From assembly GCA_004556975.1 (NCBI GenBank), contig SFFD01000005.1, forward strand, positions 2,429-66,428: a stretch of DNA of 64,000 bases, in the 5' to 3' direction. The notes below the pieces were generated by a model. It did not search any database. It saw only the letters and a program-made list of their open reading frames with translations, and had not been told where the DNA came from. The DNA comes from Oscillospiraceae bacterium. Lineage in GTDB: Bacteria; Bacillota; Clostridia; Oscillospirales; Ruminococcaceae. Made by a program: the position numbers and the translations under genes. This document shows, piece by piece, positions 9,467 to 26,552 of this stretch (position 1 is its first letter; each line of letters begins with the position of its first letter).

Positions 9467-9488
9467 AGAGTATATCTCTCCTTTTCGG

Positions 9489-10346
9489 TTATTTCTTGTC
9501 AAAAAGCGCCCGGCGCTCTGTGGAAACACGCATCATTGTGCGCATTGTTTCACGGTCGCCGCTTTCAAGAGAAGCGCGGAGCTTCATAAATTCCGCAAGG
9601 AATTTGTCCATAGAGTCAAGAAGCGCATCACGGTTAAGCAGAAAAAGCTCGCTCCACATATCGTCGTTGATTCGCGCAATTCTTGTAAGGTCGCGGAAGG
9701 AATCGCCGGTGTAATCCTGAAGCTTTTCGCCGTCGTAACAGGTCATAAGCGAAACGGCAATGCAGTGGGTAAGCTGTGAAACAAAGCCTATCATCTCGTC
9801 GTGCTTTTCCGGAGTGAGCACCGAAACGTGCGAAAAGCCGAGAAGCCGCCCCAATTCAAGACAGTCCTCAACGGCGGCGTCGGTATTGCGGCTTGTGGGG
9901 GTGACTATGTAGTTTGCACCGTGAAAAATCCGCTCGTCGCTGTTTTTTACTCCGTAAACCTCACGCCCCGCCATGGGGTGGGCGGCTATGAACTCAACGT
10001 CCGGGCGAAGCATTGCCTGTATTTTTTCAACAATCGCGCCTTTTACGCCGGTGACGTCGGTAAGCAGGGCGCCTGGCTTAAGGTACGACTGATATTTGTC
10101 TATCCACTCCACAAAAACATGGGGATACAGGGCGAAAATAATAAGTTCCGCCCTGCCGATGACCTTCGGGTCAGGCTCGGTACAGCCGAAATCAATTATT
10201 CCGTTTTCAAGGGCATAGTCAATATCTTCACGGTCAAGAGTTATGGCGGAAATCTTAAAACCGAGTTTTCTTAAAGCCTTTGCGTAACTTCCGCCGATAA
10301 GACCAAGGCCGACAATAAGTATATTTTTGCTGGTGTCAAGCATCAT
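9489..10346 (-). CDS. tyrA: Prephenate dehydrogenase
   Basis: Rossmann motif ILIVGLGLIGGSYAKAL and the HPMAG motif. It sits inside the aro operon. Confidence 0.9.
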   Translation of the reverse strand: MMLDTSKNILIVGLGLIGGSYAKALRKLGFKISAITLDREDIDYALENGIIDFGCTEPDPKVIGRAELIIFALYPHVFVEWIDKYQSYLKPGALLTDVTGVKGAIVEKIQAMLRPDVEFIAAHPMAGREVYGVKNSDERIFHGANYIVTPTSRNTDAAVEDCLELGRLLGFSHVSVLTPEKHDEMIGFVSQLTHCIAVSLMTCYDGEKLQDYTGDSFRDLTRIARINDDMWSELFLLNRDALLDSMDKFLAEFMKLRASLESGDRETMRTMMRVSTERRALFDKK

Positions 10347-11550
10347 GGCAGGTCACCTCAAATCCAAGCTTATTAAGCCGCTCAAAAAAATCCGGAAGGC
10401 TTTTGCGCGAAGCTTCCGCTCCCTCAATAACGCCGCCGGTGACAGTGGCAAGAACGGAACATGCCATAACAATCCGGTGGTCGTTGTGCCCCGAAAGCGG
10501 CTCTGTAGGGGCGTGAAAATCGTGGGGATAGATAACTACGCTGTCGTCGTGAACAGTCACGGCGACGCCGAATTTTGAAAGTTCCTCTGCCATGGCGGCG
10601 GCGCGGTCGCTTTCTTTGATTTTAAGGCGGCGCGTGCCGGTAAAAACGCCGCCGCTTTTGACCGCCGCAAGGGCAAAAAGAATCGGCCCAAGGTCGGGGC
10701 AGTCGGAAATATTTATTGTGGGCGTTCCCTTTTCAAGAAGGGCAAAGTCCTTTTCGTAAACCTTGTCGCCCTGAAGGCTGTTGGGATTAAGTCCGCTTAT
10801 TTCAATATCCGAACCGAGAAGGTTCAATGCAGCGAAGAACGCCGCGTTGGAATAGTCCCCCTCAACTTCGGCATTTACGGGCTTATAGGTCTGCCCGCCG
10901 GGAACAAAAAGGGTTTTTTCGTCCTGCCAGCTTACCCTGACCCCGAATTTTGAAAGAGCCTCTATGGTGAGGTTTATATATGAGCAGCTTTCAATGGGCG
11001 GAATAAGCTGGATGGTGCTGTCCTTTTCCATAAGGGGAAGAACAAAAAGAAGCCCCGTGATAAACTGGCTGCTGATGTTGCCTTTTATTTTATAGCTTCC
11101 GCTTTGAAGGAAGCCGCCCACGGTGATTTTGTCCTCCGCCGCTTCAAAAAGAAGCCCCTGCTTTTTGCATATGTCCTCATAAACGCTCATGGGGCGTGAA
11201 AGAAGGGTGCGGCTTCCGGTAAGGGTTACGCTTTTTCCGCAAAGAAGGCAAAGGGGAACAAAAAAACGAAGAGTACTTCCGCTTTCGCGGCAGTTAAGAA
11301 GCGTTTTGTCGGGAATATTCCGGGGGTCGGCGCCTTTTATGGTGACTCTGTCGCCTTCGATTTTATAGCTTGCGCCGATGGCGGCAAGGCAGTCAAGGGT
11401 CGCCTTCATATCCTCGGAGGAGGAAATTCCGTCAATCACGCTTTCGCCGTCGGCAAGACCGCCGCAGATTAAAAGGCGGTGCGCCATACTTTTGGAAGGC
11501 GGCGCTTTCATGCTTCCCCGGCCCGTTCCGGGCTTTATTTCGGCAATCAT
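10336..11550 (-). CDS. aroA: 3-phosphoshikimate 1-carboxyvinyltransferase (EPSP synthase)
   Basis: PPSKSMAHRLLICG, LNCRESGSTLRF and HNDHRIVMA motifs. Confidence 0.93.
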   Translation of the reverse strand: MIAEIKPGTGRGSMKAPPSKSMAHRLLICGGLADGESVIDGISSSEDMKATLDCLAAIGASYKIEGDRVTIKGADPRNIPDKTLLNCRESGSTLRFFVPLCLLCGKSVTLTGSRTLLSRPMSVYEDICKKQGLLFEAAEDKITVGGFLQSGSYKIKGNISSQFITGLLFVLPLMEKDSTIQLIPPIESCSYINLTIEALSKFGVRVSWQDEKTLFVPGGQTYKPVNAEVEGDYSNAAFFAALNLLGSDIEISGLNPNSLQGDKVYEKDFALLEKGTPTINISDCPDLGPILFALAAVKSGGVFTGTRRLKIKESDRAAAMAEELSKFGVAVTVHDDSVVIYPHDFHAPTEPLSGHNDHRIVMACSVLATVTGGVIEGAEASRKSLPDFFERLNKLGFEVTCHDA

Positions 11551-11984
11551 TTTTCACCGCCCCTTTCAATAAGCATATCGACGGCTTCAAGATAGCCGTC
11601 TGTGCCGTGCCCGATTACCGAGCCTATGCAGGCATCGCGGATATAGCTGACGCTTCGGAACGCCTCGCGCTTTGAAACGTCTGAAATATGCACCTCTACG
11701 GCGGGAATGGCCACCGCCTTAAGCGCGTCAAGAAGGGCGATGCTGGTGTGGGTGTAAGCGCCGGGGTTTATGACAATGCCGTCGGTGCTGCCAAAGGCTT
11801 CCTGTATTCTGTCAACAAGCGCACCTTCATGGTTGCTCTGAAAGAAATCCACCGAAACGCCCCGCTTTTTTGCGTGGGCGGAAATTTTATCAAGCAGGGT
11901 GGCATAGGTTTCGCTTCCGTAAATTCCCGGTTCCCGAATACCGAGCATATTCAGGTTCGGCCCGTTAATAACTAAAATCTTCAT
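11547..11984 (-). CDS. aroQ: Type II 3-dehydroquinate dehydratase
   Basis: MKILVINGPNLNMLGIREPGIYG...INPGAYTHTSIAL is the canonical AroQ sequence. Confidence 0.95.
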   Translation of the reverse strand: MKILVINGPNLNMLGIREPGIYGSETYATLLDKISAHAKKRGVSVDFFQSNHEGALVDRIQEAFGSTDGIVINPGAYTHTSIALLDALKAVAIPAVEVHISDVSKREAFRSVSYIRDACIGSVIGHGTDGYLEAVDMLIERGGEK

Positions 11985-13218
11985 TCAAAAAATCCTCTTT
12001 CACCGCTTCAAGAACCTCAAGCGCGCTTCCCGAAGCGTCTGTTCTGACGTCGCAGTATTTGTTATATAGCGGGTATCTTTCCTCGTACCGCTTCATAATG
12101 GCTTCCCGGCTGGAGGCGGTGGGGCGGTCGCCTGTGGGAACAAGGCTTTCAACGGGACGGTCGATGAAATAAATGCGCCCGTTTTTCTTAAGATACCTGA
12201 TATTTTCCGGGTTAAGAACCGCTCCGCCGCCGGTGGCGATAACCGCGCCGGTTTTGCCCGAAAGGGCGGCGACGGCCTTTGCCTCAAGCCTGCGGAAGGC
12301 TTCTTCACCCTCGGATGAAAAAATTTCGGGAATGGTTTTTCCCGCCGTTTCGGTCACAAGGTCGTCCGAATCAAAAAGCGGGCGGGAAAGGCTTTCCGAA
12401 AGAAGCTTTCCCACGGTGCTCTTGCCGGAGGCGGGCATTCCGATTAAAACAATGTTTTCCTTGCTCTTTAAAATCTCCCGATAGATTCCCTCCGCCTTTT
12501 CGGAGGGAATTTTTTCGTCAAAGAAATGCTCGGCTGCCAGAATCGCCTGCTTCACAAGCATATAAAGCCCGCCGCGGCAGGGAATGCCAAGCGCTTCCGC
12601 CCGCTGAATAAGGTCGGTTTTAAGCGGGTTATATACAACGTCAATGACAGCCTTCGCAGCCGGAAAATCCATAGGGTCGGCGGCCATTCCCTCAAGGTTC
12701 GGGAACATTCCGCAGGGGGTGGTGTTAATAAGAATTTCGGCATCGGAATGCTCGGCGCGGGCTTCGTCATATGAAATTGTTCCCTCTTCGCCAAGAATGC
12801 TTGCTTTAAGCACGGTTTTCGCTCCAAGGGCTTTAAGCACCGCAAAGGCGGTTTTGCTGGTGCCGCCGTTCCCGAAAATAAGCGCCTTTTTTCCGGCGGC
12901 GGAAACGCCGGTCTGCTCAATAAGCGCCTTAAGCCCGCCGAAATCCGTGTTGTAGCCGAAAAGCTTTCCGCCGCGGTTAACAACTGTGTTGACGGCGCCA
13001 ATGGCCTTTGCCGCATTATCAATTTCGTCAAGATAGGGAATGACCGCCTGCTTATAGGGGATGGTGACGTTTATTCCCTTAAAATCACGCCGGGCAAGAA
13101 ACGCGCCCACCTCGTCGGGCGAAAGCTCCTTAAGCTCATATTTATAATCGCCGATTCGCCGGTGAATTTCCGGCGAAAAGCTGTGGGGAAGATGTTCCCC
13201 GATAAGTCCGTATTCCAT
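11965..13218 (-). CDS. Bifunctional shikimate dehydrogenase / shikimate kinase (AroE-AroK fusion)
   Basis: The N-terminal roughly 270 aa carry AroE motifs (GLIGEHLPHSFSPEIH, NVTIPYK, GAVNT, NTDFGG). The C-terminal roughly 150 aa carry a shikimate-kinase P-loop (IVLIGMPASGKSTVGK), DSD and ATGGG. Confidence 0.88.
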   Translation of the reverse strand: MEYGLIGEHLPHSFSPEIHRRIGDYKYELKELSPDEVGAFLARRDFKGINVTIPYKQAVIPYLDEIDNAAKAIGAVNTVVNRGGKLFGYNTDFGGLKALIEQTGVSAAGKKALIFGNGGTSKTAFAVLKALGAKTVLKASILGEEGTISYDEARAEHSDAEILINTTPCGMFPNLEGMAADPMDFPAAKAVIDVVYNPLKTDLIQRAEALGIPCRGGLYMLVKQAILAAEHFFDEKIPSEKAEGIYREILKSKENIVLIGMPASGKSTVGKLLSESLSRPLFDSDDLVTETAGKTIPEIFSSEGEEAFRRLEAKAVAALSGKTGAVIATGGGAVLNPENIRYLKKNGRIYFIDRPVESLVPTGDRPTASSREAIMKRYEERYPLYNKYCDVRTDASGSALEVLEAVKEDFLNEDFSY

Positions 13219-13221
13219 GGA

Positions 13222-14316
13222 TTAACCTCCGAGCCAGTCCGTGCCATAGCGCTGCGCAAGAAGGTCGCAAAGCGCAATGGCGGCGGCGGAATCCGCAACA
13301 ACCCTTGCCCGGTGAACAATGGCAGGGTCGTGGCGGCCGTGTATTTCAAGAATCTTTTCTTCTTCCTTAACAAAATCCACCGTTTGCTGGGGTCTTGCGA
13401 CGGAGGGGGTCGGTTTTACGGCGCAGCGGAAAATAATCGGCGCGCCGTTTGTGATTCCGCCGTTTATTCCGCCGTTATGGTTGGTTTTCGTTTGGATTTT
13501 TCCGTTTTCATCAATGCCGAAGGGGTCGTTGGCTTCGCTTGCGCGCATATCTGCCATGGCAAAGCCGCTTCCGAACTCGACGCCCTTAATTGCGGGAATG
13601 CTGAAAAGAATATGGGAAAGGCAGCTTTCCACGCTGTCAAAAAAAGGTTCGCCCACACCGGCGGGTACGCCGATGACGGCGGTTTCAAGCACTCCGCCGA
13701 CGCTGTCAAGGCTTTCTTTTGCAGAAAGAATTGCTTTTTCCATCTTCTTTCCGGCTTCGGCGTCAAGAACGGCGAAGTTTTCGGAATTAAGCAAATCTAT
13801 GTCCCCGTCAAAATTCCCGAAAGCCCTGTCCTTTACTCCGCCGCAGGAAGCAATATGGGTGCCGATTTTGATTCCCCTGCGGTTAAGGGCAGAAATGGCT
13901 ATGGCGCCGGCGGCGACAAGCGCCGCGGTAACCCGCCCGCTGAAATGACCGCCGCCCCGGTAATCCTGATACCCGTGATATTTGCATTGGGCGGCATAGT
14001 CCGCGTGCCCCGGTCGGGCACAGCAGGCAATTTCGGAATAGTCCCTGCTTACGGTGTTTTCGTTGGGAATAAGTATCGTTATGGGCGTTCCCGTGGTAAA
14101 GCCGCCGAAAACGCCGCTTAAAATCTCGAATTTGTCATCTTCACGCCTTGCGGTGGAAATTATTCCGGCGGGGCGGCGCTTTGTAAGCTGGGCGGCAATA
14201 AAACCTTCGTCAACGGGAATACCCGGCGCAAGACCGGAAAGAACGGCCACAAGGGCGCCGCCGTGGCTTTCGCCGGAAATTGTTACCGAAACGCTGTTTC
14301 CAAAGCTGCTTTTCAT
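13222..14316 (-). CDS. aroC: Chorismate synthase
   Basis: FGNSVSVTISGESHGGALV...RPGHADY...GRHDP motifs. Confidence 0.95.
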   Translation of the reverse strand: MKSSFGNSVSVTISGESHGGALVAVLSGLAPGIPVDEGFIAAQLTKRRPAGIISTARREDDKFEILSGVFGGFTTGTPITILIPNENTVSRDYSEIACCARPGHADYAAQCKYHGYQDYRGGGHFSGRVTAALVAAGAIAISALNRRGIKIGTHIASCGGVKDRAFGNFDGDIDLLNSENFAVLDAEAGKKMEKAILSAKESLDSVGGVLETAVIGVPAGVGEPFFDSVESCLSHILFSIPAIKGVEFGSGFAMADMRASEANDPFGIDENGKIQTKTNHNGGINGGITNGAPIIFRCAVKPTPSVARPQQTVDFVKEEEKILEIHGRHDPAIVHRARVVADSAAAIALCDLLAQRYGTDWLGG

Positions 14317-15323
14317 TTAAAAAACGCCTCCATCCGGCTTAAAAGTTCTTCGCTGCTCCAATTTTCAAACCGATAGTTTTCAATTTCCGGAAGGGTCACG
14401 ACGGTAACAAGACCTCCTGAAAATTTTTTGTCGTGGGCGGCGGCGGAAAGAAGCTTTTGCGGGTCGCCGCTCCATTTTGTGGGAAGGTTCAGTTTTTTGA
14501 GCACGCCCTCGACCCTGGGTCTTAATTCCCCGCCGCACATGGGCAGCATTCCTATGGCGACGCATTCGCCGTGATAAAGCCCGCCGAGCCCCTCGACGCT
14601 TTCAACGGCGTGCCCTATGGTGTGCCCGAAGTTGAGCACCCGGCGAAGCCCCGCCTCGTGCTCATCCTTTTCAACCACCGCCGCCTTGCTCTTTACGGAA
14701 TGCTCAATTATTGTTTCAATATTTTCGGCGGTGCTTTCGTGCTCAAACAGCTCAAAAAGCTTCCGGTCAAAAGTAAGGGACATTTTGACCGCCTCCGCAA
14801 GTCCGTTTGAAAAATGGCGGGGAGAAAGGGTTTTAAGCACCTCCGGGTCGATGATTACAGCCTTTGGCTGATAAAAAGCGCCGATTATGTTTTTTATGCC
14901 GCCGAAATTGACTGCCGTTTTTCCGCCCACGGAGGAATCCACCTGTGAAAGAACGGTGGTGGGAATATTGTAAAAGTCAATTCCGCGCATATAGCTTGCG
15001 GCGGCAAAGCCCGCAAGGTCGCCCACTACCCCGCCGCCCACGGCAACAACACAGTCGCCCCGGGTAAAGCCGTTTTCAAGCAGCGTACCGCAAAGCCCGC
15101 CGAAAACCTCAAGGCTTTTGCTGCCCTCGCCCGTGGGAACGGTTACGGTAACGGCGCTTCGGCACTGCTTTGCAACGGTTTCGGCATACTCTTTGGGAAC
15201 GCCGCTGTCAGTGACCACAAGAACCTTTCGGTCAAGGTCCGCTATCTCTCCGGCACGGGAAAGCGCCCCGCGCGATAGGGTTATATCATAGCTTCCTGCA
15301 GGAAGCCTGACGGGAATTATCAT
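14313..15323 (-). CDS. aroB: 3-dehydroquinate synthase
   Basis: GGGVVGDLAGFAA, GGKTAVN and LNFGHTIGHA motifs. The ATG at 15323 is preceded by AAGGAGG and is preferred to the track start at 15365. Confidence 0.92.
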   Translation of the reverse strand: MIIPVRLPAGSYDITLSRGALSRAGEIADLDRKVLVVTDSGVPKEYAETVAKQCRSAVTVTVPTGEGSKSLEVFGGLCGTLLENGFTRGDCVVAVGGGVVGDLAGFAAASYMRGIDFYNIPTTVLSQVDSSVGGKTAVNFGGIKNIIGAFYQPKAVIIDPEVLKTLSPRHFSNGLAEAVKMSLTFDRKLFELFEHESTAENIETIIEHSVKSKAAVVEKDEHEAGLRRVLNFGHTIGHAVESVEGLGGLYHGECVAIGMLPMCGGELRPRVEGVLKKLNLPTKWSGDPQKLLSAAAHDKKFSGGLVTVVTLPEIENYRFENWSSEELLSRMEAFFK

Positions 15324-15348
15324 AAAGAACCTCCTTTTCCGAACGGTT

Positions 15349-16443
15349 TCAGATTTTCGTTTCATGGGGGAAGTTGCCGACCACCCTCAAATGGTCGCAG
15401 TATTTACCAAGCTCCTTTATCATAAGCTTGCCTGCGGCGCTGCCGATGTTGCCGTCGGCCTCCACATAAAAATAATACTGCCAAAGAAGCTCTTTCATCG
15501 GGCGGCTTCGCAGGGTTCTCATGTTAAAACCAAAGCGGCCGATTATGTTTATGGCTTCCGCAAGGGCGCCCGCTTCGTTGCGAACGGTAAATACAAGAAC
15601 AAACTGGCGGTCCTGTTCCCCGGCGGAAACGGAGCTTTCCACCCTTGAAAAGACGGCAAAGCGTGTGGTGTTGGTGCTGCTTTCGTTGATTTTGTGCTCA
15701 AGCACCTCAAGCCCGTAAAGCTTTGCGGTTTCGGTGCTGGCAATGGCGGCTATGCTTTTGTCGCCGCCCACCGCCACTTTTTGGGCGGCGACGGCGGTGT
15801 TCGCCGCACGCACCGCATCAAAACCCATCTTTCTGATGTAGTTTGAGCATTGCTCAATTGCCTGGGGGTGGCTGACAACGGTTCTGATGTCGGAAATTTT
15901 TGCTCCGGGAAGTCCGAGAAGGTTATGCCGCACCTCAAGGTCATATATGCCGTTGATAAAAAGAGTTCCCTGGAACATTATATCAATAACCTGCGAAACC
16001 TCGCCGGCATAGCTGTTTTCAATGGGAAGCACGGCGCAGTCGCACTCGCCGTTTACAACGGAGTCATAGGCAAAGCGAAAATCCGGGTATGAAACCTGCT
16101 TGGCGTTTGGAAAAATGCTTTTGGCGGCGATGTTGGCAAAAGCGCCCTCAACCCCGCTGTAAGCAACGGTAAGCCCGCTTTGAAGCATTTCCTGATATTT
16201 TCTTGAAATGTTCATATTGCTTTGAAGAAAGTTCACATAATACGCGCGGATTTTTTCGTCCGAAACAAGGGCGGAATTTTTTATGATTACCTCATTTTCC
16301 CGCCCGCGGTCAAGAATGGGAAGCCCGTGCTCGATTTTGTATTCGGAAACCTTTTCCACCTCGGCCATACGCTGTTCAAAAAGCCTTGCCATTTTCTTAT
16401 CAATGGCGTTTATGTTTTTTCTTGCTTCCTCAAGCTTGTTCAT
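15349..16443 (-). CDS. pheA: Bifunctional chorismate mutase / prephenate dehydratase (P-protein)
   Basis: N-terminal CM_2 helix region (IDKKMARLFEQRM), a PDT domain (TRF motif NTTRFAV) and a C-terminal ACT domain. Confidence 0.9.
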   Translation of the reverse strand: MNKLEEARKNINAIDKKMARLFEQRMAEVEKVSEYKIEHGLPILDRGRENEVIIKNSALVSDEKIRAYYVNFLQSNMNISRKYQEMLQSGLTVAYSGVEGAFANIAAKSIFPNAKQVSYPDFRFAYDSVVNGECDCAVLPIENSYAGEVSQVIDIMFQGTLFINGIYDLEVRHNLLGLPGAKISDIRTVVSHPQAIEQCSNYIRKMGFDAVRAANTAVAAQKVAVGGDKSIAAIASTETAKLYGLEVLEHKINESSTNTTRFAVFSRVESSVSAGEQDRQFVLVFTVRNEAGALAEAINIIGRFGFNMRTLRSRPMKELLWQYYFYVEADGNIGSAAGKLMIKELGKYCDHLRVVGNFPHETKI

Positions 16444-17627
16444 TTAAAATATTCCTCCGCCAATTTTCTGAATGCCGGAAGCGAACGGCGAATCTGATTT
16501 TCAGAAACGCAGTAGGAAATCCGAACATAGCCGCTCAATCCGAAATCGTCGCTCGGAACAAGAAGAAGCTCATATTTTTTCGCCCTTTCGCTGAAAGCGG
16601 CGGCGTTTGCCTCCGGCGATTTTACAAAGAGATAGAAAGCTCCGTCCGGGCGGACGGCGGAAAAGCCCATTTCTGTCAAAGCGCCGTAAAGAAGCTCGCG
16701 GTTTTTGGCATAGACCGAAAGGTCGGCGGTAAGACCGGCGCAGGAGGTAAGCATGTGCTGGAAAACCGACGGGGTGCAAATATAGCCAAGGGCGCGTCCG
16801 GCGCCGCAAACGGCGGCGTAAACGTCTTTCCAACCGTCAATTTCCGGCGAAACAAGAATATAGCCGACGCGCTCGCCGGGAAGGGAAAGAGACTTGCTGT
16901 AAGAATAGCATACCACCGTGTCGCGGTAATATTTTGTTACGAAGGGAACCTTAATCCCGTCATAGACAATCTCGCGGTAGGGCTCGTCCGAAATGAGAAA
17001 AATCCTTTTTCCAAAGCGGCGCTCCGCTTCCGAAAGAATCTCCGAAAGGCGTATGATGCTTTCTTCCGAAAGCACCGCGCCCGAGGGGTTGTTCGGCGAA
17101 TTTATGATGACGGCAGAGGTTTTTTCGTTAAGAGCGCTTTCAAGGCGCTCAAAATCAATCTGAAAATCCTCCTCTCTGCAGGGAACGGCAACGGGCTTTC
17201 CGCCGGCGGTTTCAATATAAACCCGGTATTCGGGAAAACAGGGGGTGAAAATTATTACCTCGCCGCCCTCCTCCACAAGCGCGGAGAAAGAAATGGTAAG
17301 GCTTGCCGCCGCGCCGCAGGTAAGATAGAGGTGCTCCGCGCCGAAATCCGTTCCAAAGCGGCGGTTAAGGTCGTCGGCAATGGCACTTCTTGCGGCGGCG
17401 CTGCCCGGGGCGGAGGTATAACCGTGAATTTCAACAGGGTTCCGCTCGGTCAAAAGGCGCACAAGCTCTTCCTCCACCGCCTTGGGCACGGGCGCGTTTG
17501 GGTTGCCAATGCTGAAATCAAAGACGTTTTCGTCGCCGATTTCCGCCTTTCTTTTGTTGCCGTATTCAAAAAGCTCCCGTATTACGGAGCGTTTTTTGCC
17601 CAGGGATTCCATTCTTTTTCTGTCCAT
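16440..17627 (-). CDS. Class I/II PLP-dependent aminotransferase (aromatic/aspartate type)
   Basis: FSIGNPN, NPSGAV, SYSKSLSLPGERVGY (PLP-Lys) motifs. The ATG at 17627 is preceded by AGGAGG. It is the first gene of the aro operon. Confidence 0.88.
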   Translation of the reverse strand: MDRKRMESLGKKRSVIRELFEYGNKRKAEIGDENVFDFSIGNPNAPVPKAVEEELVRLLTERNPVEIHGYTSAPGSAAARSAIADDLNRRFGTDFGAEHLYLTCGAAASLTISFSALVEEGGEVIIFTPCFPEYRVYIETAGGKPVAVPCREEDFQIDFERLESALNEKTSAVIINSPNNPSGAVLSEESIIRLSEILSEAERRFGKRIFLISDEPYREIVYDGIKVPFVTKYYRDTVVCYSYSKSLSLPGERVGYILVSPEIDGWKDVYAAVCGAGRALGYICTPSVFQHMLTSCAGLTADLSVYAKNRELLYGALTEMGFSAVRPDGAFYLFVKSPEANAAAFSERAKKYELLLVPSDDFGLSGYVRISYCVSENQIRRSLPAFRKLAEEYFK

Positions 17628-18743: not shown

Positions 18744-20048
18744 ATGACAGCTTTGCTTTCCGTTGCCGTTGCCATAATTGCCGGACTTTTGATGACAAGG
18801 GTGCTTAAACCCCTGCACCTTCCGGACGTAACGGCATATTTGATTACGGGCGTGCTTATAGGGCCGTATCTTATCGGCGCGCTCGGCGTTCCGGGTCTTG
18901 GTTTCAATACCGCTGAAGATGTTTCTGCGCTTACCCCTATTTCAAATATGGCGCTTGGGTTTATCGCCTTTGCCATTGGCAATGAATTTCGCCTTGCCGA
19001 CCTTAAAAAGACCGGAAAGGCGGCCACCGTTATAGGAATTGTTCAGGCGCTTGTCGCCGCCGCAGCCACTGACGCCGTGCTTATTGCTTTTCATTTCGCA
19101 ATGCCGGAAAAGCTTTCTCTTCCGGCAGCCACAACCCTTGGCGCAATCGCCACCGCAACGGCGCCTGCGGCCACCCTTATGGTTGTGCGGCAATATAAGG
19201 CCAAGGGCAGTCTTACAAACCTTTTGCTGCCCATAGTCGCCCTGGATGACGCCGTGGGTCTTGTGGTTTTTGCCGTAAGCTTCGGCGCGGCAAAGGCAAT
19301 GAGCAGCGGCGCTTTGGACATTGTTTCAGTTGTGATAGAGCCGCTTCTTGAAATTTTGCTTTCTCTTGCTCTCGGCGCCGCCATGGGGTATATTCTGACT
19401 CTGCTTGAAAGAAAATTCTTTTCCAACAGCAACCGTATGTCCATGACAATAGGCTTTGTGCTGTTGACCGTGGCGCTTTCATCGCTTAAATTCACCGTGG
19501 GTGCGCTGCACATCTCGTTCAGCTCGCTTCTTGTGTGCATGATGCTGGGTACTGTTTTCTGCAACACATGCCCGCTTTCCTTTGACCTTATGGAGCGTGC
19601 CGACCGCTGGACGGCACCCCTTTATGTGTTCTTCTTTGTCGTAAGCGGCGCCGGACTTGAACTTTCCGTGTTCAAGGATTTGTGGGTGGTGCTTATCGGT
19701 ATTATTTATGTGCTTGTTCGCGCTCTCGGCAAATACGCCGGCGCTTTTGGCGGCTGTGTCGCCACAAAGCAGGATAAAAAGGTTACCCAAAATCTCGGCA
19801 TAGCTTTGTTCCCCCAGGCGGGGGTGGCCCTTGGAATGTGCGTAACCGCAAGCCAGCTTGAGGGCGACGGCAAAATCATACGCAATATAGTGCTTTTCGC
19901 AATTCTTATCTATGAGCTTGTCGGCCCCACTCTTACAAAATGGGCGCTTACACGCTCCGGAGATATTGTGGCAAAGCCCGAAGAATATAAAAACCGCCGT
20001 GCCGACCTTCTTTCAGGCGCGCGCAAATCATGGAACCATAAATTCTGA
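18744..20048 (+). CDS. Cation:proton antiporter (Na+/H+ exchanger family, CPA2-like)
   Basis: About 12 TM segments and a typical N-terminus LLMTRVLKPLHLPDVTAYLITGVLIGPY. Confidence 0.85.
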   Translation: MTALLSVAVAIIAGLLMTRVLKPLHLPDVTAYLITGVLIGPYLIGALGVPGLGFNTAEDVSALTPISNMALGFIAFAIGNEFRLADLKKTGKAATVIGIVQALVAAAATDAVLIAFHFAMPEKLSLPAATTLGAIATATAPAATLMVVRQYKAKGSLTNLLLPIVALDDAVGLVVFAVSFGAAKAMSSGALDIVSVVIEPLLEILLSLALGAAMGYILTLLERKFFSNSNRMSMTIGFVLLTVALSSLKFTVGALHISFSSLLVCMMLGTVFCNTCPLSFDLMERADRWTAPLYVFFFVVSGAGLELSVFKDLWVVLIGIIYVLVRALGKYAGAFGGCVATKQDKKVTQNLGIALFPQAGVALGMCVTASQLEGDGKIIRNIVLFAILIYELVGPTLTKWALTRSGDIVAKPEEYKNRRADLLSGARKSWNHKF

Positions 20049-20084: not shown

Positions 20085-20322
20085 CGCGATTTCCGGCGCA
20101 ATGCCGAAAATTGTGCCGGCGGCTTTACAGCTTATTTTGCTTTGCGCATTGCCCGTGGCGTCTGAAAAATATGCTTTTACGGCGCCACGACCTGATTTTT
20201 TTAAGTCGGTTAGGAATATTTCGCTTATTGTTAACAAATATTACATAGATAAATTTTAAAATTGTGATATACTTACTAATCGTAGGAATATCCCTTTCTG
20301 AATTTAAGGAGGTTTTTTGAAA

Positions 20323-21999
20323 ATGAAAGCCATTAAACGAATTTCTGCGCTGCTTCTTGCGGTCGTCATGGTTGTCGCTATGGTTCCCGCAGTGAACGCC
20401 TTCGCCCTTGAGTGGGAAGAGCAGCTCTCCAAATATGACCTTGTGTTCAGTGCAGGCGCCGGCAACGGCGGCAGCGAAACATGGACGTATCTGAAAGACG
20501 AACCGGCGGATCTTCCCGACGCGGGAACCCTCGGCTTTGTTTACAGCGGATACTACTTCACCGGCTGGAAAATAAACGGCAAAATTTATCAGTCCGGCAG
20601 CCGCTTCTATCTTGACCCGAAAACCGCAAGCAACAACGGCGACCGCTACATTGTCAGCGCCGTAGCTCAGTGGCAGAAGAACGGCACGTCCTCTTCCTCC
20701 ACGTCTTCAAGCAGCAAGACCTATATTTACGGTACATATAAGCCCGGCGAAAAGGCAAAGGGCAACGAATATATCGTAAAATATGTTGCAGGCGAAGCAT
20801 TTGAGCTTGATACATGCTCCTTCACAAGAGAAGGCTATACCTTCGCCGGGTGGGAAGTTGACGGCGAAATTTTCTCTGCGGGCGTAAAAGTCAAATCAGA
20901 CACGAACTTCACCGCCACCGCCACATGGAAGTCCAACGGAATCCATATAAGCGACTATAATCCAAGCTCCTCCGCTTCCAGCTCTACAAGCAGCAAGCCC
21001 GCCTCCAGTAGCAAGCCCGCCTCCAGCAGCAAGCCCGCTTCCAGCAGCAAACCGGCAAGCAGCTCCACCGCAAGCAAGCCGCAAAGCTCAAGCTCTTCCT
21101 CAAGCGTTGCGGAATCCTCTCTTTCAAGCTCTTCGGAAGCTTCCTCTCTGCCTGAAACTCCCGTAACTCCTTCCGTACCGGAATATACCCCCGTAACCCT
21201 TTCTTACAGCATTTCAGGCGATATTCCCGTAACCGGAATTGAGTTTACCTTAAATGAGGACCTTGGCGGAAAGGTTCAGCTTGACGTTTCGGTTCTTGAC
21301 GGCTACAGTGCCGCGGACGACGTAACATCCGCCTTTATTGCAGACGGCGACGTTCTTTCCGCCTTTGATATTTCCGTACTTCTTGACGGCGCGGCATATC
21401 ACGGCTCTTCCGAGGGCGTAATCAAATACACTCTTAACGGAACCCAGGCAAACGCTTCTTCCAACTATAAAGAATATGTCGCCGCGCTTGTTCACGTCAT
21501 CGGCGCAGAGGACTTTGCCGGCAGTTCTTATTATATGAGTGAAAACGGCAAGGCATATCTTTATAATGTCGAAACAGAAAGCAAGTCAGAGGTAAACAAT
21601 ATTTCCTTTGCACAGCATGACGGAATTTACCGCCCGGTGATTGCCGACGTCAACAGCCTTTCCACCTTTGCCTATCTTGCAAAGGAAGGCACGATTGTTG
21701 AAGTAAAGCTTATGCCCGATATCAACGCCACAGAGGTTTCAATGAACGTTGCCTCGCTTTCCCCGGTAATGCTTGTTCAGCTTGAAATGGGCAAAGCGGC
21801 AGCCGCCTCTTCGGGAATTCCGGTGTGGGCGCTTATCCTTATAATTCTGCTTGCGGTTGTTATAATTGCCATTGTTGTGCTGTTCATTATATTCAGAATA
21901 AAGGGCAGCGGCGGCAAGCCGAAAACCGGCACCGTTGAAAGACGCGTGGTTCACCGCCAGAACACCAAGGTAACCGGCTTTGATGACGACGATTTCTGA
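20323..21999 (+). CDS. Secreted, membrane-anchored surface protein with two Listeria-Bacteroides-type repeats and a Ser-rich spacer
   Basis: Signal peptide MKAIKRISALLLAVVMVVAMVPAVNAFA. Repeat signatures GYYFTGWKINGKIY and GYTFAGWEVDGEIF. An (SKPASS)n plus poly-Ser linker. C-terminal TM segment IPVWALILIILLAVVIIAIVVLFIIF followed by a basic tail. Confidence 0.8.
   Translation: MKAIKRISALLLAVVMVVAMVPAVNAFALEWEEQLSKYDLVFSAGAGNGGSETWTYLKDEPADLPDAGTLGFVYSGYYFTGWKINGKIYQSGSRFYLDPKTASNNGDRYIVSAVAQWQKNGTSSSSTSSSSKTYIYGTYKPGEKAKGNEYIVKYVAGEAFELDTCSFTREGYTFAGWEVDGEIFSAGVKVKSDTNFTATATWKSNGIHISDYNPSSSASSSTSSKPASSSKPASSSKPASSSKPASSSTASKPQSSSSSSSVAESSLSSSSEASSLPETPVTPSVPEYTPVTLSYSISGDIPVTGIEFTLNEDLGGKVQLDVSVLDGYSAADDVTSAFIADGDVLSAFDISVLLDGAAYHGSSEGVIKYTLNGTQANASSNYKEYVAALVHVIGAEDFAGSSYYMSENGKAYLYNVETESKSEVNNISFAQHDGIYRPVIADVNSLSTFAYLAKEGTIVEVKLMPDINATEVSMNVASLSPVMLVQLEMGKAAAASSGIPVWALILIILLAVVIIAIVVLFIIFRIKGSGGKPKTGTVERRVVHRQNTKVTGFDDDDF
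20992..21063 (+). repeat. 18-bp tandem repeat x4 (AGCAAGCCCGCCTCCAGY, encodes SKPASS)
   Basis: Four consecutive units. The first three are nearly identical and the fourth has diverged. Confidence 0.9.
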
Positions 22000-22184: not shown

Positions 22185-22940
22185 ATGGACGCAGAACCTG
22201 AGTTTATCAACCTGACGGAGGAAAATATAGATTCCCAGCACCTTTGCTGCATAATTCGCAGTAAAACCGTTCACCCCGGGGTGGAGGCAAAGCGCGCATG
22301 GCTGCGCGCCCGCCTTGCGGAAGGTCATGTTTTTCGCAAGCTGAACGAAAAAGCAACGGTTTTTATCGAATATGCCCCTTTAGAAAAGGCATGGGTGCCC
22401 GTTATCGGCGAAAATTATATGTATATATATTGCCTTTGGGTTCTCGGCGACCGCCGCGGCAAGGGATATGGCGAAATGCTTATGAACTATTGCATTGATG
22501 ATGCAAAGGCAAAGGGTAAATCCGGCGTTTGTATGCTTGCCGCAGAAAAACAGAAGGCTTGGCTTTCAGACCAAGGCTTTGCCGAAAAATTCGGCTTTCT
22601 TCCGATAGATTCCACAGATTACGGCTATAAGCTGCTGGCGCTTTCCTTTGACAAAACCGTGCCGCGCTTTGCCGAAAACGCAAAGGCAGGAAAAATCGAA
22701 TCGCCGGAGCTTACCGTGTATTACAGCGACCAATGCCCGTATATTCCGCAAACAACAGCCCTTGTCAAGAAATTCTGTGAGGAAAATTCCGTTTTGTACA
22801 CCCTTATTCATGTTGACAGCCTTGAAAAAGCGAAGGCGCTGCCCTGTGTTTTCAATAATTACGCGGTGTTTTATAAAGGCGAATTTGTTACGGTGAACCT
22901 TACGGATGCCGCTGCGCTGAAAAAAATTCTTAAGAAATAA
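22185..22940 (+). CDS. GNAT N-acetyltransferase with C-terminal YoaP-like domain
   Basis: The acetyl-CoA site region LWVLGDRRGKGYGEMLMNY is followed by LTVYYSDQCPYIPQ...VFYKGEFVT, as in B. subtilis YoaP-type proteins. Confidence 0.75.
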   Translation: MDAEPEFINLTEENIDSQHLCCIIRSKTVHPGVEAKRAWLRARLAEGHVFRKLNEKATVFIEYAPLEKAWVPVIGENYMYIYCLWVLGDRRGKGYGEMLMNYCIDDAKAKGKSGVCMLAAEKQKAWLSDQGFAEKFGFLPIDSTDYGYKLLALSFDKTVPRFAENAKAGKIESPELTVYYSDQCPYIPQTTALVKKFCEENSVLYTLIHVDSLEKAKALPCVFNNYAVFYKGEFVTVNLTDAAALKKILKK

Positions 22941-23001: not shown

Positions 23002-23304
23002 GTGGATTTCTTAAAGTTAAGCAAAGAAGAATCAAAAATATATACCGACAATGATTTTCTTGAAAACATAAGCGAAAATTATAGTTCGCAGGAAGGCGTA
23101 ACGGAAAGCAAAGTTGCTCCCGTTTCCGTGGGAGGAAAGAAAATCCCTGCGGTTAATATAAAAATGTACAGCGGCGCGGGCGACGAAATTTACGGTCTGA
23201 CATTTGTAAAGGTGCTTGACGGCGCGGTATGTATGGTAAACGTGTGTGCATATGACGAACCGGGGCTTGCCGCAATTACGGATATGCCGGAGCTTGACTG
23301 GTAA
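23002..23304 (+). CDS. Hypothetical 100-aa protein (weakly supported; possible gene remnant)
   Basis: The GTG start has no RBS and no family is recognised. A good RBS (AGGAGG at 22942) lies upstream, but it is followed by stop codons in this frame. Confidence 0.25.
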   Translation: MDFLKLSKEESKIYTDNDFLENISENYSSQEGVTESKVAPVSVGGKKIPAVNIKMYSGAGDEIYGLTFVKVLDGAVCMVNVCAYDEPGLAAITDMPELDW

Positions 23305-23396: not shown

Positions 23397-23425
23397 TTGA
23401 CTTTTACGGTTTAAAGTGTTATGCT
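23397..23425 (+). promoter_or_regulatory. Sigma-A-type promoter of the ABC-importer leader
   Basis: TTGACT, 17-nt spacer, TGtTATGCT (extended -10). Confidence 0.6.
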
Positions 23426-23468
23426 TTTAAACGTTGAAACCAAACTCTTAAGAAAGGAAGCGCAAACG

Positions 23469-23597
23469 ATGAAAAAAATGGCTATGAACATGGCAAAATA
23501 CTTTAGATTTACCGTTCGCTATTTTGCGGGCTATTTTTGCTATGCTTACTATTATTTTTATCGCAGAAACAAAATAGTGCTTCCCATGGCGGTTTGA
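23469..23597 (+). CDS. Candidate 42-aa Tyr/Phe-rich leader peptide MKKMAMNMAKYFRFTVRYFAGYFCYAYYYFYRRNKIVLPMAV
   Basis: The ATG is preceded by GAAAGGAAG (8-nt spacing). The peptide has 8 Tyr and 5 Phe in 42 codons, including YAYYYFY. The ORF lies between a promoter and an intrinsic terminator, directly upstream of the transporter operon. It falls below the size cutoff of the supplied ORF track. Confidence 0.55.
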   Translation: MKKMAMNMAKYFRFTVRYFAGYFCYAYYYFYRRNKIVLPMAV

Positions 23598-23631
23598 TTT
23601 CTCTGTTTTGTAAAGCAACAGAAATTTAAGC

Positions 23632-23666
23632 GCGGTTCTTGCGGAAGCAGGGACCGCATATTTTTT
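23632..23666 (+). terminator. Intrinsic terminator (attenuator) in the ABC-importer leader
   Basis: 11-bp stem GCGGTTCTTGC/GCAGGGACCGC (two G-U pairs), GGAA loop, then ATATTTTTT. It ends 8 nt before the RBS AGGAGG of the binding-protein gene. Confidence 0.75.
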
Positions 23667-23688
23667 GAAAATCAGGAGGAAGTAAAAC

Positions 23689-24714
23689 ATGAAACTTAAG
23701 CAGATTATTGCAGCAGTTCTTGCCGCAGCAATGATTACGGCAATGACCGCCTGCAGCTCAAACGGCGGCGAACAGTCCCAGCAGGGCTCCGAACAGAGCC
23801 AAAGCCAAAGCGAGGAGCAAAGCCAAAGCTCCGACAACGAAAAAATTAAAGTAGGCGTTCTTCAGCTTGTTCAGCACGAAGCCCTTGACGCCGCAACCCA
23901 GGGCTTTGTTGACGCCCTTAACGAAAAGTTCGGCGACAAGGTTGAAATAGTTGTTCAGAACGCTTTCGGTGAGTCGCCCACCTGCGGCATAATTGCCAAC
24001 CAGTTTGTTTCTGAAAAAATGAATCTCATTATGGCAAACGCAACTCCCGCTCTTCAGGCGGCAGCCGCCGCCACCGACAGTATTCCGATTGTGGGAACCT
24101 CTGTCACCGACTATGCCACCGCTCTTCAGATAAGCGACTGGACCGGCAAGACCGGAAGCAATATTACCGGCACCGCCGACCTTGCGCCTCTTTCCGAACA
24201 GGCCGCGATGATTAAGGAGCTTTTCCCCGATGCAAAGAAGGTAGGCATCCTCTACTGCTCCGCAGAGCCGAACTCCGCATATCAGGCAAAAGTAATTAAA
24301 GACGAGCTTTCCGCTCTCGGCCTTGAAAGCGAAGAATTCACCTTTGCCGATACCAACGACGTTGCTGCGGTTACCTCCAACGCCTGCGCCGCTGTGGATG
24401 TGCTCTATATTCCCACCGATAATACCGCCGCCACCTGCACCGAAGCCATAAACAATGTTGCACAGCCCGCCGGAATACCCATTGTTGCAGGCGAAGCGGG
24501 AATCTGCAAGGGCTGCGGCGTTGCGACCCTTTCCATCAGCTACTATGATATAGGCTATATTGCCGGCGAAATGGCAATTGAAATTCTTTCCGAAGGCAAA
24601 AACCCCGGCGATATGGATATCCGTTTCGCCCCCGAAGTGACTAAAATGTATAACGCAGACATCTGCACCGCGCTTGGCATAACTCCTCCGGAGGATTACT
24701 CTCCGCTTGAATAA
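23689..24714 (+). CDS. ABC transporter substrate-binding lipoprotein (PF04392 / TrpX-like family)
   Basis: Lipoprotein signal ...AMITAMTAC, then KIKVGVLQLVQHEALDAATQGFVDAL, which is typical of the ABC_sub_bind family. Confidence 0.85.
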   Translation: MKLKQIIAAVLAAAMITAMTACSSNGGEQSQQGSEQSQSQSEEQSQSSDNEKIKVGVLQLVQHEALDAATQGFVDALNEKFGDKVEIVVQNAFGESPTCGIIANQFVSEKMNLIMANATPALQAAAAATDSIPIVGTSVTDYATALQISDWTGKTGSNITGTADLAPLSEQAAMIKELFPDAKKVGILYCSAEPNSAYQAKVIKDELSALGLESEEFTFADTNDVAAVTSNACAAVDVLYIPTDNTAATCTEAINNVAQPAGIPIVAGEAGICKGCGVATLSISYYDIGYIAGEMAIEILSEGKNPGDMDIRFAPEVTKMYNADICTALGITPPEDYSPLE

Positions 24715-24829: not shown

Positions 24830-25765
24830 ATGCCTGATATTACAACATTTCTAAACGGTCTGCCCGGGTACGCTGCCCAGGGAGTTATATGGGGCATAAT
24901 GGCCCTCGGTCTTTATATCTCATACCGCCTTTTGGATTTTGCCGACCTTACGGTGGACGGTTCCTTTGCCACCGGCGCGGCGGTTACCGTAATGCTTATT
25001 CTGGCGGGCTGGCCCGCCTGGGCAGCAATGCTCGTGGCGCTTGCTGCCGGAATGGCGGCGGGCTTTATTACCGGAATTTTGCATACCGCCCTTGGCATTG
25101 CGCCGATTCTTGCCGGAATTCTTACGCAGATTGCTCTCTATTCAATCAACCTGCATATTCTCGGCAACAAGCCGAACCAGGCGATAAGCGTCGACAAATA
25201 TGACCTTATGCTTTCTCTTCGTAATGTAAACACCGCAATTTTTGTGGCGCTTGGCTTTGCGGCGGCGCTGATTCTGCTGTTCTACTGGTTCTTCGGAACG
25301 GAGCTTGGTTCAGCGGTGCGTGCCACCGGCTGCAACCAAAGCATGGCAAAGGCGCAGGGAATAAATATAAACACAATGAAGGTTTTTGCGCTTGCCATTT
25401 CAAACGGAATCGTCGCGCTTTCCGGCGGACTTCTTGCCCAGTACCAGGGCTTTGCGGACGCGCAAATGGGCCGTGGCGCCATAGTAATAGGGCTTGCCTC
25501 CATAATAATCGGCGAAGTTCTGGCGGAAGCAATATTCAGAAAAGGCATGAATTTTTCCATATGCCTTGCCTCCGCGGTGTTCGGCGGCGTAATTTACTAT
25601 GTTGTAATGGGCGTCGTGCTCTGGCTCAAGCTTCCCACCAACGATATGAAGCTTTTTACCGCAATAATCGTTGCCGCCTTCCTTGCGGTGCCGTACCTGC
25701 GCGGAAAATCAAAGCATTCCTTTGCCGCGCTTAAACACAGGAAAGGAGAAGAGGAACATGCTTGA
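24830..25765 (+). CDS. ABC transporter permease (partner of the PF04392 binding protein)
   Basis: 311-aa product with about 8-9 TM segments; the family is typical of TrpY-like permeases. Confidence 0.85.
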   Translation: MPDITTFLNGLPGYAAQGVIWGIMALGLYISYRLLDFADLTVDGSFATGAAVTVMLILAGWPAWAAMLVALAAGMAAGFITGILHTALGIAPILAGILTQIALYSINLHILGNKPNQAISVDKYDLMLSLRNVNTAIFVALGFAAALILLFYWFFGTELGSAVRATGCNQSMAKAQGININTMKVFALAISNGIVALSGGLLAQYQGFADAQMGRGAIVIGLASIIIGEVLAEAIFRKGMNFSICLASAVFGGVIYYVVMGVVLWLKLPTNDMKLFTAIIVAAFLAVPYLRGKSKHSFAALKHRKGEEEHA

Positions 25766-26552
25766 CATAAAAGGAATTTACAAGACCTTCAACCCCGGTT
25801 CCGTTAACGAAAAGCATGCGCTTAACGGCGTTGATCTTCACCTTAACGAAGGTGACTTCGTCACTGTTATCGGCGGAAACGGAGCGGGCAAATCCACTTT
25901 TCTCAACGCGATAGCGGGCGTTTGGCCGGTGGATAAGGGCAGAATTTTCATCGACGGAAAGGACGTAACCTCACTTCCCGAATACAAGCGGGCAAAATAT
26001 CTCGGCCGCGTGTTTCAGGACCCGATGACCGGTACCGCCGCAAATATGCAGATTGAAGAAAACCTTGCCCTTGCCGCGCGCCGCGGAAGCAGCCGCGGCC
26101 TTAGGTGGGAGGTTACAAAAAAGGAGCGTGAAGAATACCGCGCGCTGCTTACTTCCCTTGACCTCGGTCTTGAGGACAGGCTTACCGCAAAGGTCGGTCT
26201 GCTTTCCGGCGGCCAGCGCCAGGCGCTGACCCTTGTTATGGCAACGCTTGTCAAGCCAAAGCTTTTGCTTTTGGATGAGCACACCGCCGCTCTTGACCCT
26301 AAAACCGCGGCAAAGGTGCTTGAAATTACCGACAAAGTCATTAAAGAAAATAATCTTACCGCAATTATGGTAACTCATAATATGAACGACGCCATAAAGC
26401 ACGGCAACCGTCTTATTATGATGAACGACGGCAAAATTATCTTCGACGTTTCCGGCGAGGAAAAGAAAAACCTTACCGTGGAGGATTTGCTGCGCAAATT
26501 CAGCGAAAATTCCGGCGAAGCTTTTGCCGACGACCGCGCAATACTCGGCTGA
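25758..26552 (+). CDS. ABC transporter ATP-binding protein
   Basis: Walker A GGNGAGKST, signature LSGGQRQ, Walker B LLLLDEHTAALD. The ATG at 25758 is preceded by GGAGAAGAGG and overlaps the permease stop. Confidence 0.9.
   Translation: MLDIKGIYKTFNPGSVNEKHALNGVDLHLNEGDFVTVIGGNGAGKSTFLNAIAGVWPVDKGRIFIDGKDVTSLPEYKRAKYLGRVFQDPMTGTAANMQIEENLALAARRGSSRGLRWEVTKKEREEYRALLTSLDLGLEDRLTAKVGLLSGGQRQALTLVMATLVKPKLLLLDEHTAALDPKTAAKVLEITDKVIKENNLTAIMVTHNMNDAIKHGNRLIMMNDGKIIFDVSGEEKKNLTVEDLLRKFSENSGEAFADDRAILG

Follow-up and report, generated by a model that had tools for sequence, protein, structure and literature searches.

A tyrosine-dominated leader reading frame and terminator as a likely ribosome-mediated attenuator of a probable tyrosine importer in Oscillospiraceae

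A 64,000-nucleotide stretch of an Oscillospiraceae bacterium genome (contig SFFD01000005.1, positions 2,429 to 66,428; hereafter the window, whose own numbering is used throughout) encodes on its plus strand an ATP-binding cassette (ABC) importer, preceded by a leader that holds a small open reading frame (ORF) rich in tyrosine codons and, after it, an intrinsic terminator. From a computational analysis we propose that this leader is a leader-peptide (ribosome-mediated) transcription attenuator controlling a probable tyrosine importer, a reading we hold to be likely. The classical polarity, in which stalling on Tyr/Phe codons leads to read-through, seems to us likely too. Such an attenuator would most likely report the charging of tyrosine (and phenylalanine) tRNA and turn the importer on when tyrosine is short. 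The initial annotation of the window had already put forward an attenuator sensing aromatic amino acids. Conservation of the leader, independent leaders in other lineages, the absence of a T-box and the transporter signature all support that general idea, but the specific pairings that it drew are not conserved, and equilibrium folding predicts no switch for the window leader itself.

The promoter, the leader ORF with its codon content, the terminator, the transporter genes and the neighbouring biosynthetic operon described in the initial annotation are all present where it placed them. The SD (Shine-Dalgarno) sequence GAAAGGAAG (23452-23460, plus strand) lies 8 nt before an ATG at 23469, which opens a frame of 42 codons, MKKMAMNMAKYFRFTVRYFAGYFCYAYYYFYRRNKIVLPMAV, closed by TGA at 23595-23597 (the whole spanning 23469-23597). 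The peptide has 8 Tyr, 5 Phe and no Trp, so that 13 of its 42 codons are aromatic. A first cluster, Tyr-Phe-Arg-Phe (codons 11-14, 23499-23510), is followed by the main run, Tyr-Phe-Cys-Tyr-Ala-Tyr-Tyr-Tyr-Phe-Tyr (codons 22-31, 23532-23561), in which six of seven codons are aromatic and which is the proposed site of ribosome stalling. At least 13 aromatic residues in 42 have a probability of ~6e-5 under the local proteome composition. A scan of all 64 kb for SD-preceded small ORFs with an aromatic run returned three against 1.45 expected from shuffles; the leader ORF is thus not significant alone and it is conservation in relatives that establishes it. Gene callers report the leader ORF as a protein in metagenomes, it carries no Pfam annotation, and a homology search with the peptide matched only close relatives. 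A further SD-preceded small ORF, with the aromatic run ..FCFYYSNIIYFYFF.. (17812-17690, minus strand), reaches into the -35/spacer of the promoter, described below, that drives the aromatic operon, and stops there. It probably arose by chance, given its T-rich setting upstream of that promoter and an expectation of 1.45 ORFs of this kind in each window.

Relatives of the binding protein were collected by scanning one genome per species, which gave 80 loci (these and further loci are cited here by L numbers). They come mostly from metagenome-assembled genomes (MAGs), and the set of close relatives is small and phylogenetically clustered. The leader aligns at the DNA level 5' of the orthologous binding-protein gene in L001-L005; the peptide search added L110 as a further relative with the leader, which is thus conserved in several Oscillospiraceae. 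In L006, L009, L010 and L014 a shorter homologous leader (short type) stands before the second of two tandem binding-protein genes. L001-L005, L110 and the short-type relatives all retain the SD, ATG, reading frame, stop and terminator, and the SD bases GAAAGG are invariant. Apart from one His and one Arg, all changes in the 13 aromatic codon columns are of the kinds TAT/TAC, TTT/TTC or Tyr/Phe, and the N- and C-terminal residues of the peptide drift freely. Conservation of the ORF in relatives, a check suggested by the initial annotation, therefore extends to the level of codons in L001-L005 and L110. Constrained aromatic columns between drifting ends are the pattern that would be expected where the codons matter and not the peptide product. 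Phe and Tyr codons interchange freely among these relatives, so a strictly Tyr-specific signal is unsupported.

Many relatives possess two tandem binding-protein paralogues (L006, L009, L010 and L014, and also L002, L029, L077 and L079). Where the leader and promoter lie between copy 1 and copy 2, as in L006, L009, L010 and L014, only copy 2 and the genes after it would come under attenuation control. On the minus strand of a 1499-nt contig, L092 has the same promoter and leader remnants (..TTCGTCTTTGCCGGCTATTTTGCC..), but neither an intact leader ORF nor a terminator is obvious ahead of the binding-protein start, and the attenuator may have decayed there.

Outside this group, leaders with Tyr/Phe runs that cannot be aligned to the window leader precede orthologues of the transporter, each with a good SD and a downstream terminator. 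The peptides of L057 (MKRCFDFAYAYYYYFYDESNRIL) and L080 (MNRSISFAYAYYYYFHKKK) contain FAYAYYYYF; that of the spirochaete MAG L061 (MTKARFYFYFFISPEKGVCA) has the run RFYFYFF; L081 and L101 encode ...VRAQAGRFSYAYYYFY... and L091, L098 and L107 encode ...VRLFAGLYYRAYFYFY..., and Tyr/Phe runs are also found in the leaders of L099 and L104. Runs of the form YAY(Y/F)Y(F/Y) recur in L081, L099, L091, L104, L057 and L080, and the position of the first cluster is taken by YYRF, FFRF or YYSF in L068, L096 and L060. Of 85 upstream regions, 8 passed a strict filter (SD plus at least five aromatics in seven codons), where dinucleotide shuffles gave 0.57. There are at least three unalignable leader types. 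The peptides range from 19 to 52 residues, sequence outside the aromatic runs is unconserved across types, and a terminator was present in all 21 leaders examined. The promoter stands directly before the gene, with no leader ORF, in L008, L017, L093 and L105; the leader is thus an optional regulatory module and not part of the transporter.

These comparisons bear on whether the peptide itself is the product. The ORF could specify a micro-protein, rich in aromatic residues and with a function of its own, such as partnering the transporter at the membrane, with the hairpin acting as a leaky terminator that fixes the gene ratio. Its core, AKYFxFTVR(Y/F)FAGYFCYAYYYFYR, is indeed nearly invariant in close relatives, and the YAY motif recurs across types with a variable third base in the Ala codon. 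Conservation of the Val-Arg..Ala-Gly part is, however, explained by an RNA hairpin (below), neither length nor sequence outside the runs is conserved across types, the ORF is missing from many orthologous operons (L008, L017, L093 and L105 among them) and has no Pfam annotation, and in L110 the C-terminal part is read in another frame from unchanged nucleotides. We consider a micro-protein very unlikely.

The recurrence of YAY(Y/F)Y(F/Y) at the peptide level in otherwise unrelated leaders, with the third base of the Ala codon free to vary (GCU, GCG, GCC, GCA), would also suit a nascent-peptide arrest sensor of the TnaC kind, in which the peptide together with free tyrosine or another ligand would stall the ribosome from the exit tunnel independently of tRNA charging. 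Such sensors are recognised by invariant residues at fixed spacing from the stall site and by Rho-dependent termination that stalling at the stop codon relieves, and the window leader has neither. Tyr/Phe swaps and large differences in length fit poorly with a precise tunnel-contact motif, termination is intrinsic, unlike the Rho-dependent kind in tna, and the GC of the Ala codon also strengthens helices that involve the Tyr run. We give an arrest sensor less credence again than a micro-protein.

The leader RNA has structure beyond its terminator, and the window leader folds better than shuffled sequence (z = -4.35). The terminator, GCGGTTCTTGC-GGAA-GCAGGGACCGC, has an 11-bp stem at 23632-23657 and six T residues at 23661-23666, with a predicted stability of -19 kcal/mol. 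It lies 34 nt after the leader stop and has compensatory pairs at alignment columns 217/246 and 222/241. Its T tract ends 7 nt before the ribosome-binding site (RBS) AGGAGG (23674-23679), and not 8 nt as first annotated, and 22 nt before the ATG at 23689. No promoter is predicted between terminator and RBS; indeed 22 nt leave no room for one, so transcription of the transporter genes would need read-through.

Within the ORF, hairpin A (23514-23531, GUUCGC-UAUUUU-GCGGGC, followed by a U-rich stretch) lies just 3' of the first aromatic cluster, is formed by the codons for Val-Arg..Ala-Gly and looks terminator-like in a scan. The phase of these codons is the same in 18 leaders; L060 has a compensatory change (GUCUGC/GCAGGC), and short-type leaders have a hairpin of different sequence in the same place. 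By analogy with the 1:2 hairpin of trp, hairpin A is a candidate RNA polymerase pause/synchronisation hairpin. Directly after the stop codon comes hairpin B, UUUCUCUGUU...AACAGAAA (23598-23624), which is kept with different sequence in L004, L005 and the short-type leaders. Two further elements pair with one another: S1, GGAAGCGC (23456-23463), which comprises the 3' part of the SD and the following bases, and S2, GUGCUUCC (23577-23584), in the last codons of the ORF, whose nucleotides are invariant (GYGCUUCC). The S1:S2 helix includes one compensatory pair (GC:3, AU:2, GU:1). A second possible partner of S2 is the terminator loop together with the first bases of the 3' arm (23643-23649; CG:4, UA:2, UG:1). 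In L110 a pair of insertions (+1 and +2) shifts the frame across S2, replacing Val-Leu-Pro with Cys-Ala-Ser, and leaves the bases unchanged. This frameshift, the only one among the relatives, is compensated within 10 codons, and it points to constraint on S2 as RNA.

An undescribed riboswitch, or a leader that binds a protein or a tRNA, could make use of the long hairpin 23456-23584 and the terminator, in which case the ORF would be incidental. The folding score is in keeping with such an RNA-only element, as is the RNA-level conservation of hairpin A, S2 and the long hairpin, which includes some compensatory pairs. It is nonetheless the least probable of the readings we weighed. No relative has lost the SD, ATG, frame or stop, and the single frameshift is compensated; the aromatic codons change synonymously or between Tyr and Phe only; the unalignable leaders have just a translated Tyr run and a terminator in common; and there is no Rfam match. 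Rfam returned nothing for the whole window at the gathering score or for the leader at E <= 10, the best resemblance being of the terminator only to an unrelated small RNA model (21 bits against a gathering score of 39). The T-box core (AGGGUGGNACCGCG), sought by regular expression, is absent from 85 orthologous upstream regions, and T-box detection had a positive control in L100 (105 bits). A T-box (RF00230), which would show a Stem I with specifier loop and that core in an antiterminator bulge, or a known riboswitch, the covariance match that the initial annotation had wanted checked, was rejected for the leader on these Rfam and motif searches.

The binding protein supports tyrosine as the substrate. 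Its closest solved structure is CD0873 of Clostridioides difficile (PDB 6HNI; E = 8e-53 over ~305 residues, a moderate match), which was crystallised with tyrosine and is stabilised by tyrosine only (PMC6816091). The hydroxyl of the bound tyrosine is held by a hydrogen bond from Glu263 of CD0873, and Tyr279 keeps tryptophan out; Glu263 is replaced by Ala in the relatives that bind Phe and Trp, and Tyr279 by Gln in the Trp binder (PMC6816091). Alignment to 6HNI indicates that the window protein keeps both residues, in AGE and SISY motifs, as do 108 of 109 informative matches among related loci. The two positions offer no variation to correlate with leader type, all being Glu/Tyr. The importer probably carries tyrosine, judging from these residues, and this signature agrees with the Tyr-dominated leader. 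Some caution in predicting substrate from two residues comes from L100: its PF04392 binding protein, a distant one (31-36% identity), also has Glu/Tyr but lies behind a T-box (3738-3976, 105 bits) with a specifier interpreted as UUC (Phe).

How read-through would be achieved is less clear, and the exact antiterminator in the window is the weakest step of our explanation. The initial annotation had drawn two competing pairings by eye. Both can be drawn in the window, and neither is kept in its closest relatives. The first (23562-70 with 23635-43) has a mismatch in the window, is weaker in L001 and L003 and is the best partner of the terminator 5' arm in no relative; the second (23586-94 with 23652-59) is possible in the window and lost in L002 (ATGACAGTT) and L003 (GGCGGCAAT). 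Both were set aside. The common alternative fold, unlike the second pairing, joins 23589-91 to 23631-33. This fold is a long rod (23578-23649: 23578-84 with 23643-49, 23585-87 with 23635-41, 23589-91 with 23631-33 and 23593-94 with 23628-29), in which an extended hairpin B forms the apex and the 5' strand consists of the last seven codons, the stop codon and the next 13 nt. When the terminator is forbidden, the same rod is predicted independently in the window, L110, L001, L002, L003 and L005, at 0 to +6.7 kcal/mol relative to the terminator state across the six sequences. Its 5' strand is exactly the footprint of a terminating ribosome and starts ~4 nt beyond a ribosome stalled on the last Tyr codon.

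Some other leaders fare better in these models. The segment that a terminating ribosome would cover was replaced by shuffles and the alternative to the terminator scored; it became worse in most leaders, with p <= 0.04 in 8 of 17 and p = 0.01 in L110 and L002. A mask over all sequence as far as the front of a ribosome stalled at the final aromatic codon lowered the predicted terminator probability, relative to a ribosome at the stop, in L005 (0.15 against 0.84), L080 (0.33 against 0.92) and L110 (0.61 against 0.99). The cleanest classical layout (1:2, 2:3, 3:4) is that of L057 and L080, where segment 1 holds the Tyr run: the run pairs with the end of the ORF, which alternatively pairs with the 5' arm and loop of the terminator.

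Several results weigh against our explanation. In the window the rod costs 5.7 kcal/mol relative to the terminator state and the shuffle test gives p = 0.19; its covariation is not significant in a formal test of 7 sequences; and it blocks the lower 7-8 bp of the terminator only partly. When a ribosome footprint was slid along the window ORF in equilibrium folding, of both full-length and truncated transcripts, the terminator always won, and the stalled-ribosome mask used above produced no drop in its probability. The masked-footprint check proposed in the initial annotation thus reveals no switch for the window leader. Dominance of the terminator at equilibrium is what would be expected of a kinetically controlled device, yet it gives no direct support. 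In the hairpin-A leaders L081, L099 and L104 the terminator 5' arm pairs most strongly with the hairpin A 3' arm; as this segment precedes the Tyr run, classical polarity does not fit cleanly. Lastly, some members have few Tyr codons (L096: 1 Tyr, 4 Phe) and Tyr/Phe swaps are common, so that the amino acid sensed may be Phe as much as Tyr. As the antiterminator of the window, the rod is a candidate weakly supported by these folding models.

Sequence and comparison show the parts and their conservation, codon-level constraint at the aromatic positions, constraint on S2 as RNA and the Tyr signature of the binding protein; leader translation, stalling, which structure is the antiterminator and the direction of the response are our proposals. 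We envisage the following sequence of events. Transcription would start at the promoter (23397-23425), and a ribosome would load on the strong SD and translate the leader of 42 codons. A polymerase pause at hairpin A (23514-31) may keep ribosome and polymerase coupled. With charged tRNA-Tyr (and tRNA-Phe) plentiful, the ribosome would reach the stop at 23595 and cover S2 (23577-84) and the 5' side of hairpin B; with S2 covered, the terminator (23632-66) would fold and transcription would end before the binding-protein gene. When charging of tRNA-Tyr or tRNA-Phe is low, the ribosome would stall on the run at 23532-61 with its leading edge near 23573, leaving the strand 23577-23610 free to zip with the emerging strand 23613-23649 into the long rod. 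With the terminator loop, part of its 5' arm and the first bases of its 3' arm held in the rod, the polymerase would read through into the transporter operon. As it would grow outward from hairpin B while its 3' strand is being transcribed, we infer a kinetic advantage for the rod.

The opposite polarity uses the same parts. A stalled ribosome would let S1:S2 or hairpin A form and so lead to termination, whilst translation to the stop would cover S2 and free S1 or the hairpin A 3' arm to sequester the terminator 5' arm; the importer would be on when tyrosine is plentiful, for instance for fermentative use. The S1 region is in fact the best partner of the terminator 5' arm in the window, L001 and L003 (-11 to -14 kcal/mol), as is the hairpin A 3' arm, upstream of the Tyr run, in L081, L099, L104 and also L060 (-15 to -19.5 kcal/mol across these four leaders), and C. 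difficile uses imported tyrosine catabolically (PMC6816091). Set against this are the classical layout of L057 and L080 with the Tyr run in segment 1, the classical direction in which L005 and L110 switch in masked folding, the full Tyr/Phe biosynthetic operon in the genome, which points to anabolic use, and the induction of related importers by starvation (PMC9382623). We regard the opposite polarity as unlikely. A broader speculation, first in rank among the alternatives though still improbable, is that the element does more than sense starvation: either hairpin A and the YAY(Y/F)Y(F/Y) peptide form a combined RNA/nascent-peptide pausing device or the polarity is inverse, with tyrosine abundance driving uptake for fermentation. 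If true, this would be a regulatory logic undescribed for leader peptides.

The genes that the proposed attenuator would control follow in order on the plus strand: the PF04392 substrate-binding lipoprotein (23689-24714; Pfam E = 4.6e-57), a PF02653 permease (24830-25765) and the PF00005 ABC ATPase of the same transporter (25758-26552). The promoter upstream of the leader is of sigma-70 type, with TTGACT at 23397-23402, a 17-nt spacer and a TG-extended TATGCT at 23420-23425 (9 of 12 matches plus the TG). In the alignment of relatives, its spacer TTTAAAG and the downstream TTTTAAAC are almost invariant columns. The motif TTTAAAG...TTTAAAC was considered as a specific operator and rejected, since it also precedes unrelated genes in metagenomes and is likelier to be a style of promoter. 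Some 60-300 nt after this promoter motif, L084, L085, L087, L090 and L106 have a conserved, apparently structured leader of ~230 nt (GAAAACGGTAGGTGAGGCTACCATAGGGATACGG...) that ends in a terminator-like hairpin before an unrelated gene.

The shikimate/Phe/Tyr operon, assigned by Pfam, occupies 8438-17627 on the minus strand, 6 kb from the transporter leader, and is headed by an aminotransferase gene (ATG 17627). Its promoter (17707-17680, minus strand; TTGACTTTTTCGATTTAAAGCGTATAAT, 11 of 12 matches) and that of the transporter have in common an unusual core, TTGACTTT..TTTAAAG..TAT, matched three times in the window with at most three mismatches, against 0.09 expected; this may be a lineage-specific promoter style rather than a shared operator. 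Between the operon promoter and the aminotransferase RBS lies a perfect palindrome, GGTTAACGCTGTTAACC, followed by ATTTT (17662-17646, minus strand), which may be an operator or small hairpin regulating the biosynthetic operon. Upstream gene order differs between the window and L110. A Na+/H+ exchanger gene (L110 1-1266) directly adjoins the leader in L110; in the window three ORFs stand between the homologous-type exchanger gene (18744-20048) and the leader, namely a Listeria-Bacteroides-repeat protein (20317-21999), a GNAT/YoaP protein (22185-22940) and a 100-aa ORF (23002-23304), which suggests an insertion.

If confirmed, the attenuator would extend classical ribosome-mediated attenuation to tyrosine and place it in uncultured Clostridia that abound in the gut, a group in which such control is usually credited to T-boxes. 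That Oscillospiraceae, other Clostridia and a spirochaete have several unalignable Tyr/Phe-rich leaders before one orthologous transporter suggests repeated invention or rapid turnover. Leader content would offer a cheap route to substrate assignment for PF04392 transporters, and small ORFs of this type are routinely missed or left unnamed in annotation. Tyrosine uptake by gut anaerobes feeds the formation of p-cresol and other phenolic products (PMC6816091).

Attenuation of the pheL/pheM/trpL/hisL type is well known; what is new here is the Tyr-dominated specificity, the host group of gut Clostridia and the at least three unalignable leader families. In the literature searched, no Tyr-rich leader peptide is described, the Phe-Tyr-Phe aroR leader being the only case met. 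The initial annotation overstated the rarity of such devices, as leader-peptide attenuators for His have been predicted in Firmicutes (PMC9413887) and aroR is known in Corynebacterium, going by the account in PMC11802643. E. coli pheL-pheA and pheM-pheST, within the trpL, hisL paradigm, are established leader-peptide attenuators (summarised in PMC11802643). The window leader resembles them in its short, probably translated frame, its run of aromatic codons and its intrinsic terminator, with ribosome position proposed to choose between terminator and antiterminator. Unlike theirs, its run is dominated by Tyr (8 Tyr, 5 Phe), its host is a gut member of the Clostridia and its genes encode an importer rather than a biosynthetic enzyme or synthetase; there is no sequence similarity, Rfam leader models are unmatched and the antiterminator is only a candidate.

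Closest in content is C. glutamicum aroR-aroF (Neshat et al. 2014, as cited in PMC11802643), which, from that citation, shares mixed Phe/Tyr codons (Phe-Tyr-Phe) and controls aromatic amino-acid genes by ribosome stalling, as is proposed for the window leader, and whose leader responded to Phe and not to Tyr. As described there, aroR has three aromatic codons and controls a DAHP synthase in an actinobacterium, whereas the window leader has 13 aromatic codons in two clusters and an internal conserved hairpin. The closest phylogenetic context is that of the predicted His leaders of the Bacillus cereus group, Peptostreptococcaceae and Erysipelotrichales, with 3-5 His codons in a row; they include control of the hisXYZ ABC transporter and are found in Firmicutes that lack a T-box or repressor for the pathway (PMC9413887). 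They too control a transporter and were found by the same comparative logic, but they concern another amino acid and other operons and have no sequence relationship to the window leader.

The tyrosine-transporter operon of C. difficile, as examined in L116, differs from that of the window in gene order and in having another, unclassified structured leader. In the C. difficile MAG L116, a leader of ~400 nt (4840-5262; z = -6.7, no Rfam match) lies upstream of genes for a permease, an ATPase and a CD0873-like substrate-binding protein. It contains GCCACAUGG, ACUGUGUGGC, GCCAUACAGU and ACUGUGUGG+U7, laid out like a 1:2, 2:3, 3:4 attenuator, and a short ORF, MKTLLNKQVRFFSSQFS, near its start. A Tyr T-box before C. 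difficile CD0873-type genes, which was looked for to fix the polarity, was not found. TrpXYZ of Streptococcus suis and S. pneumoniae, also of the PF04392 family, is T-box-controlled and starvation-induced (PMC9382623). There the sensor is a tRNA-binding RNA; in the window, which has no T-box at the leader, it would be the translating ribosome. The one arrangement places, and the other would place, an importer of the same transporter family under a choice between terminator and antiterminator, through which the uncharged cognate tRNA induces TrpXYZ and would induce the importer described here.

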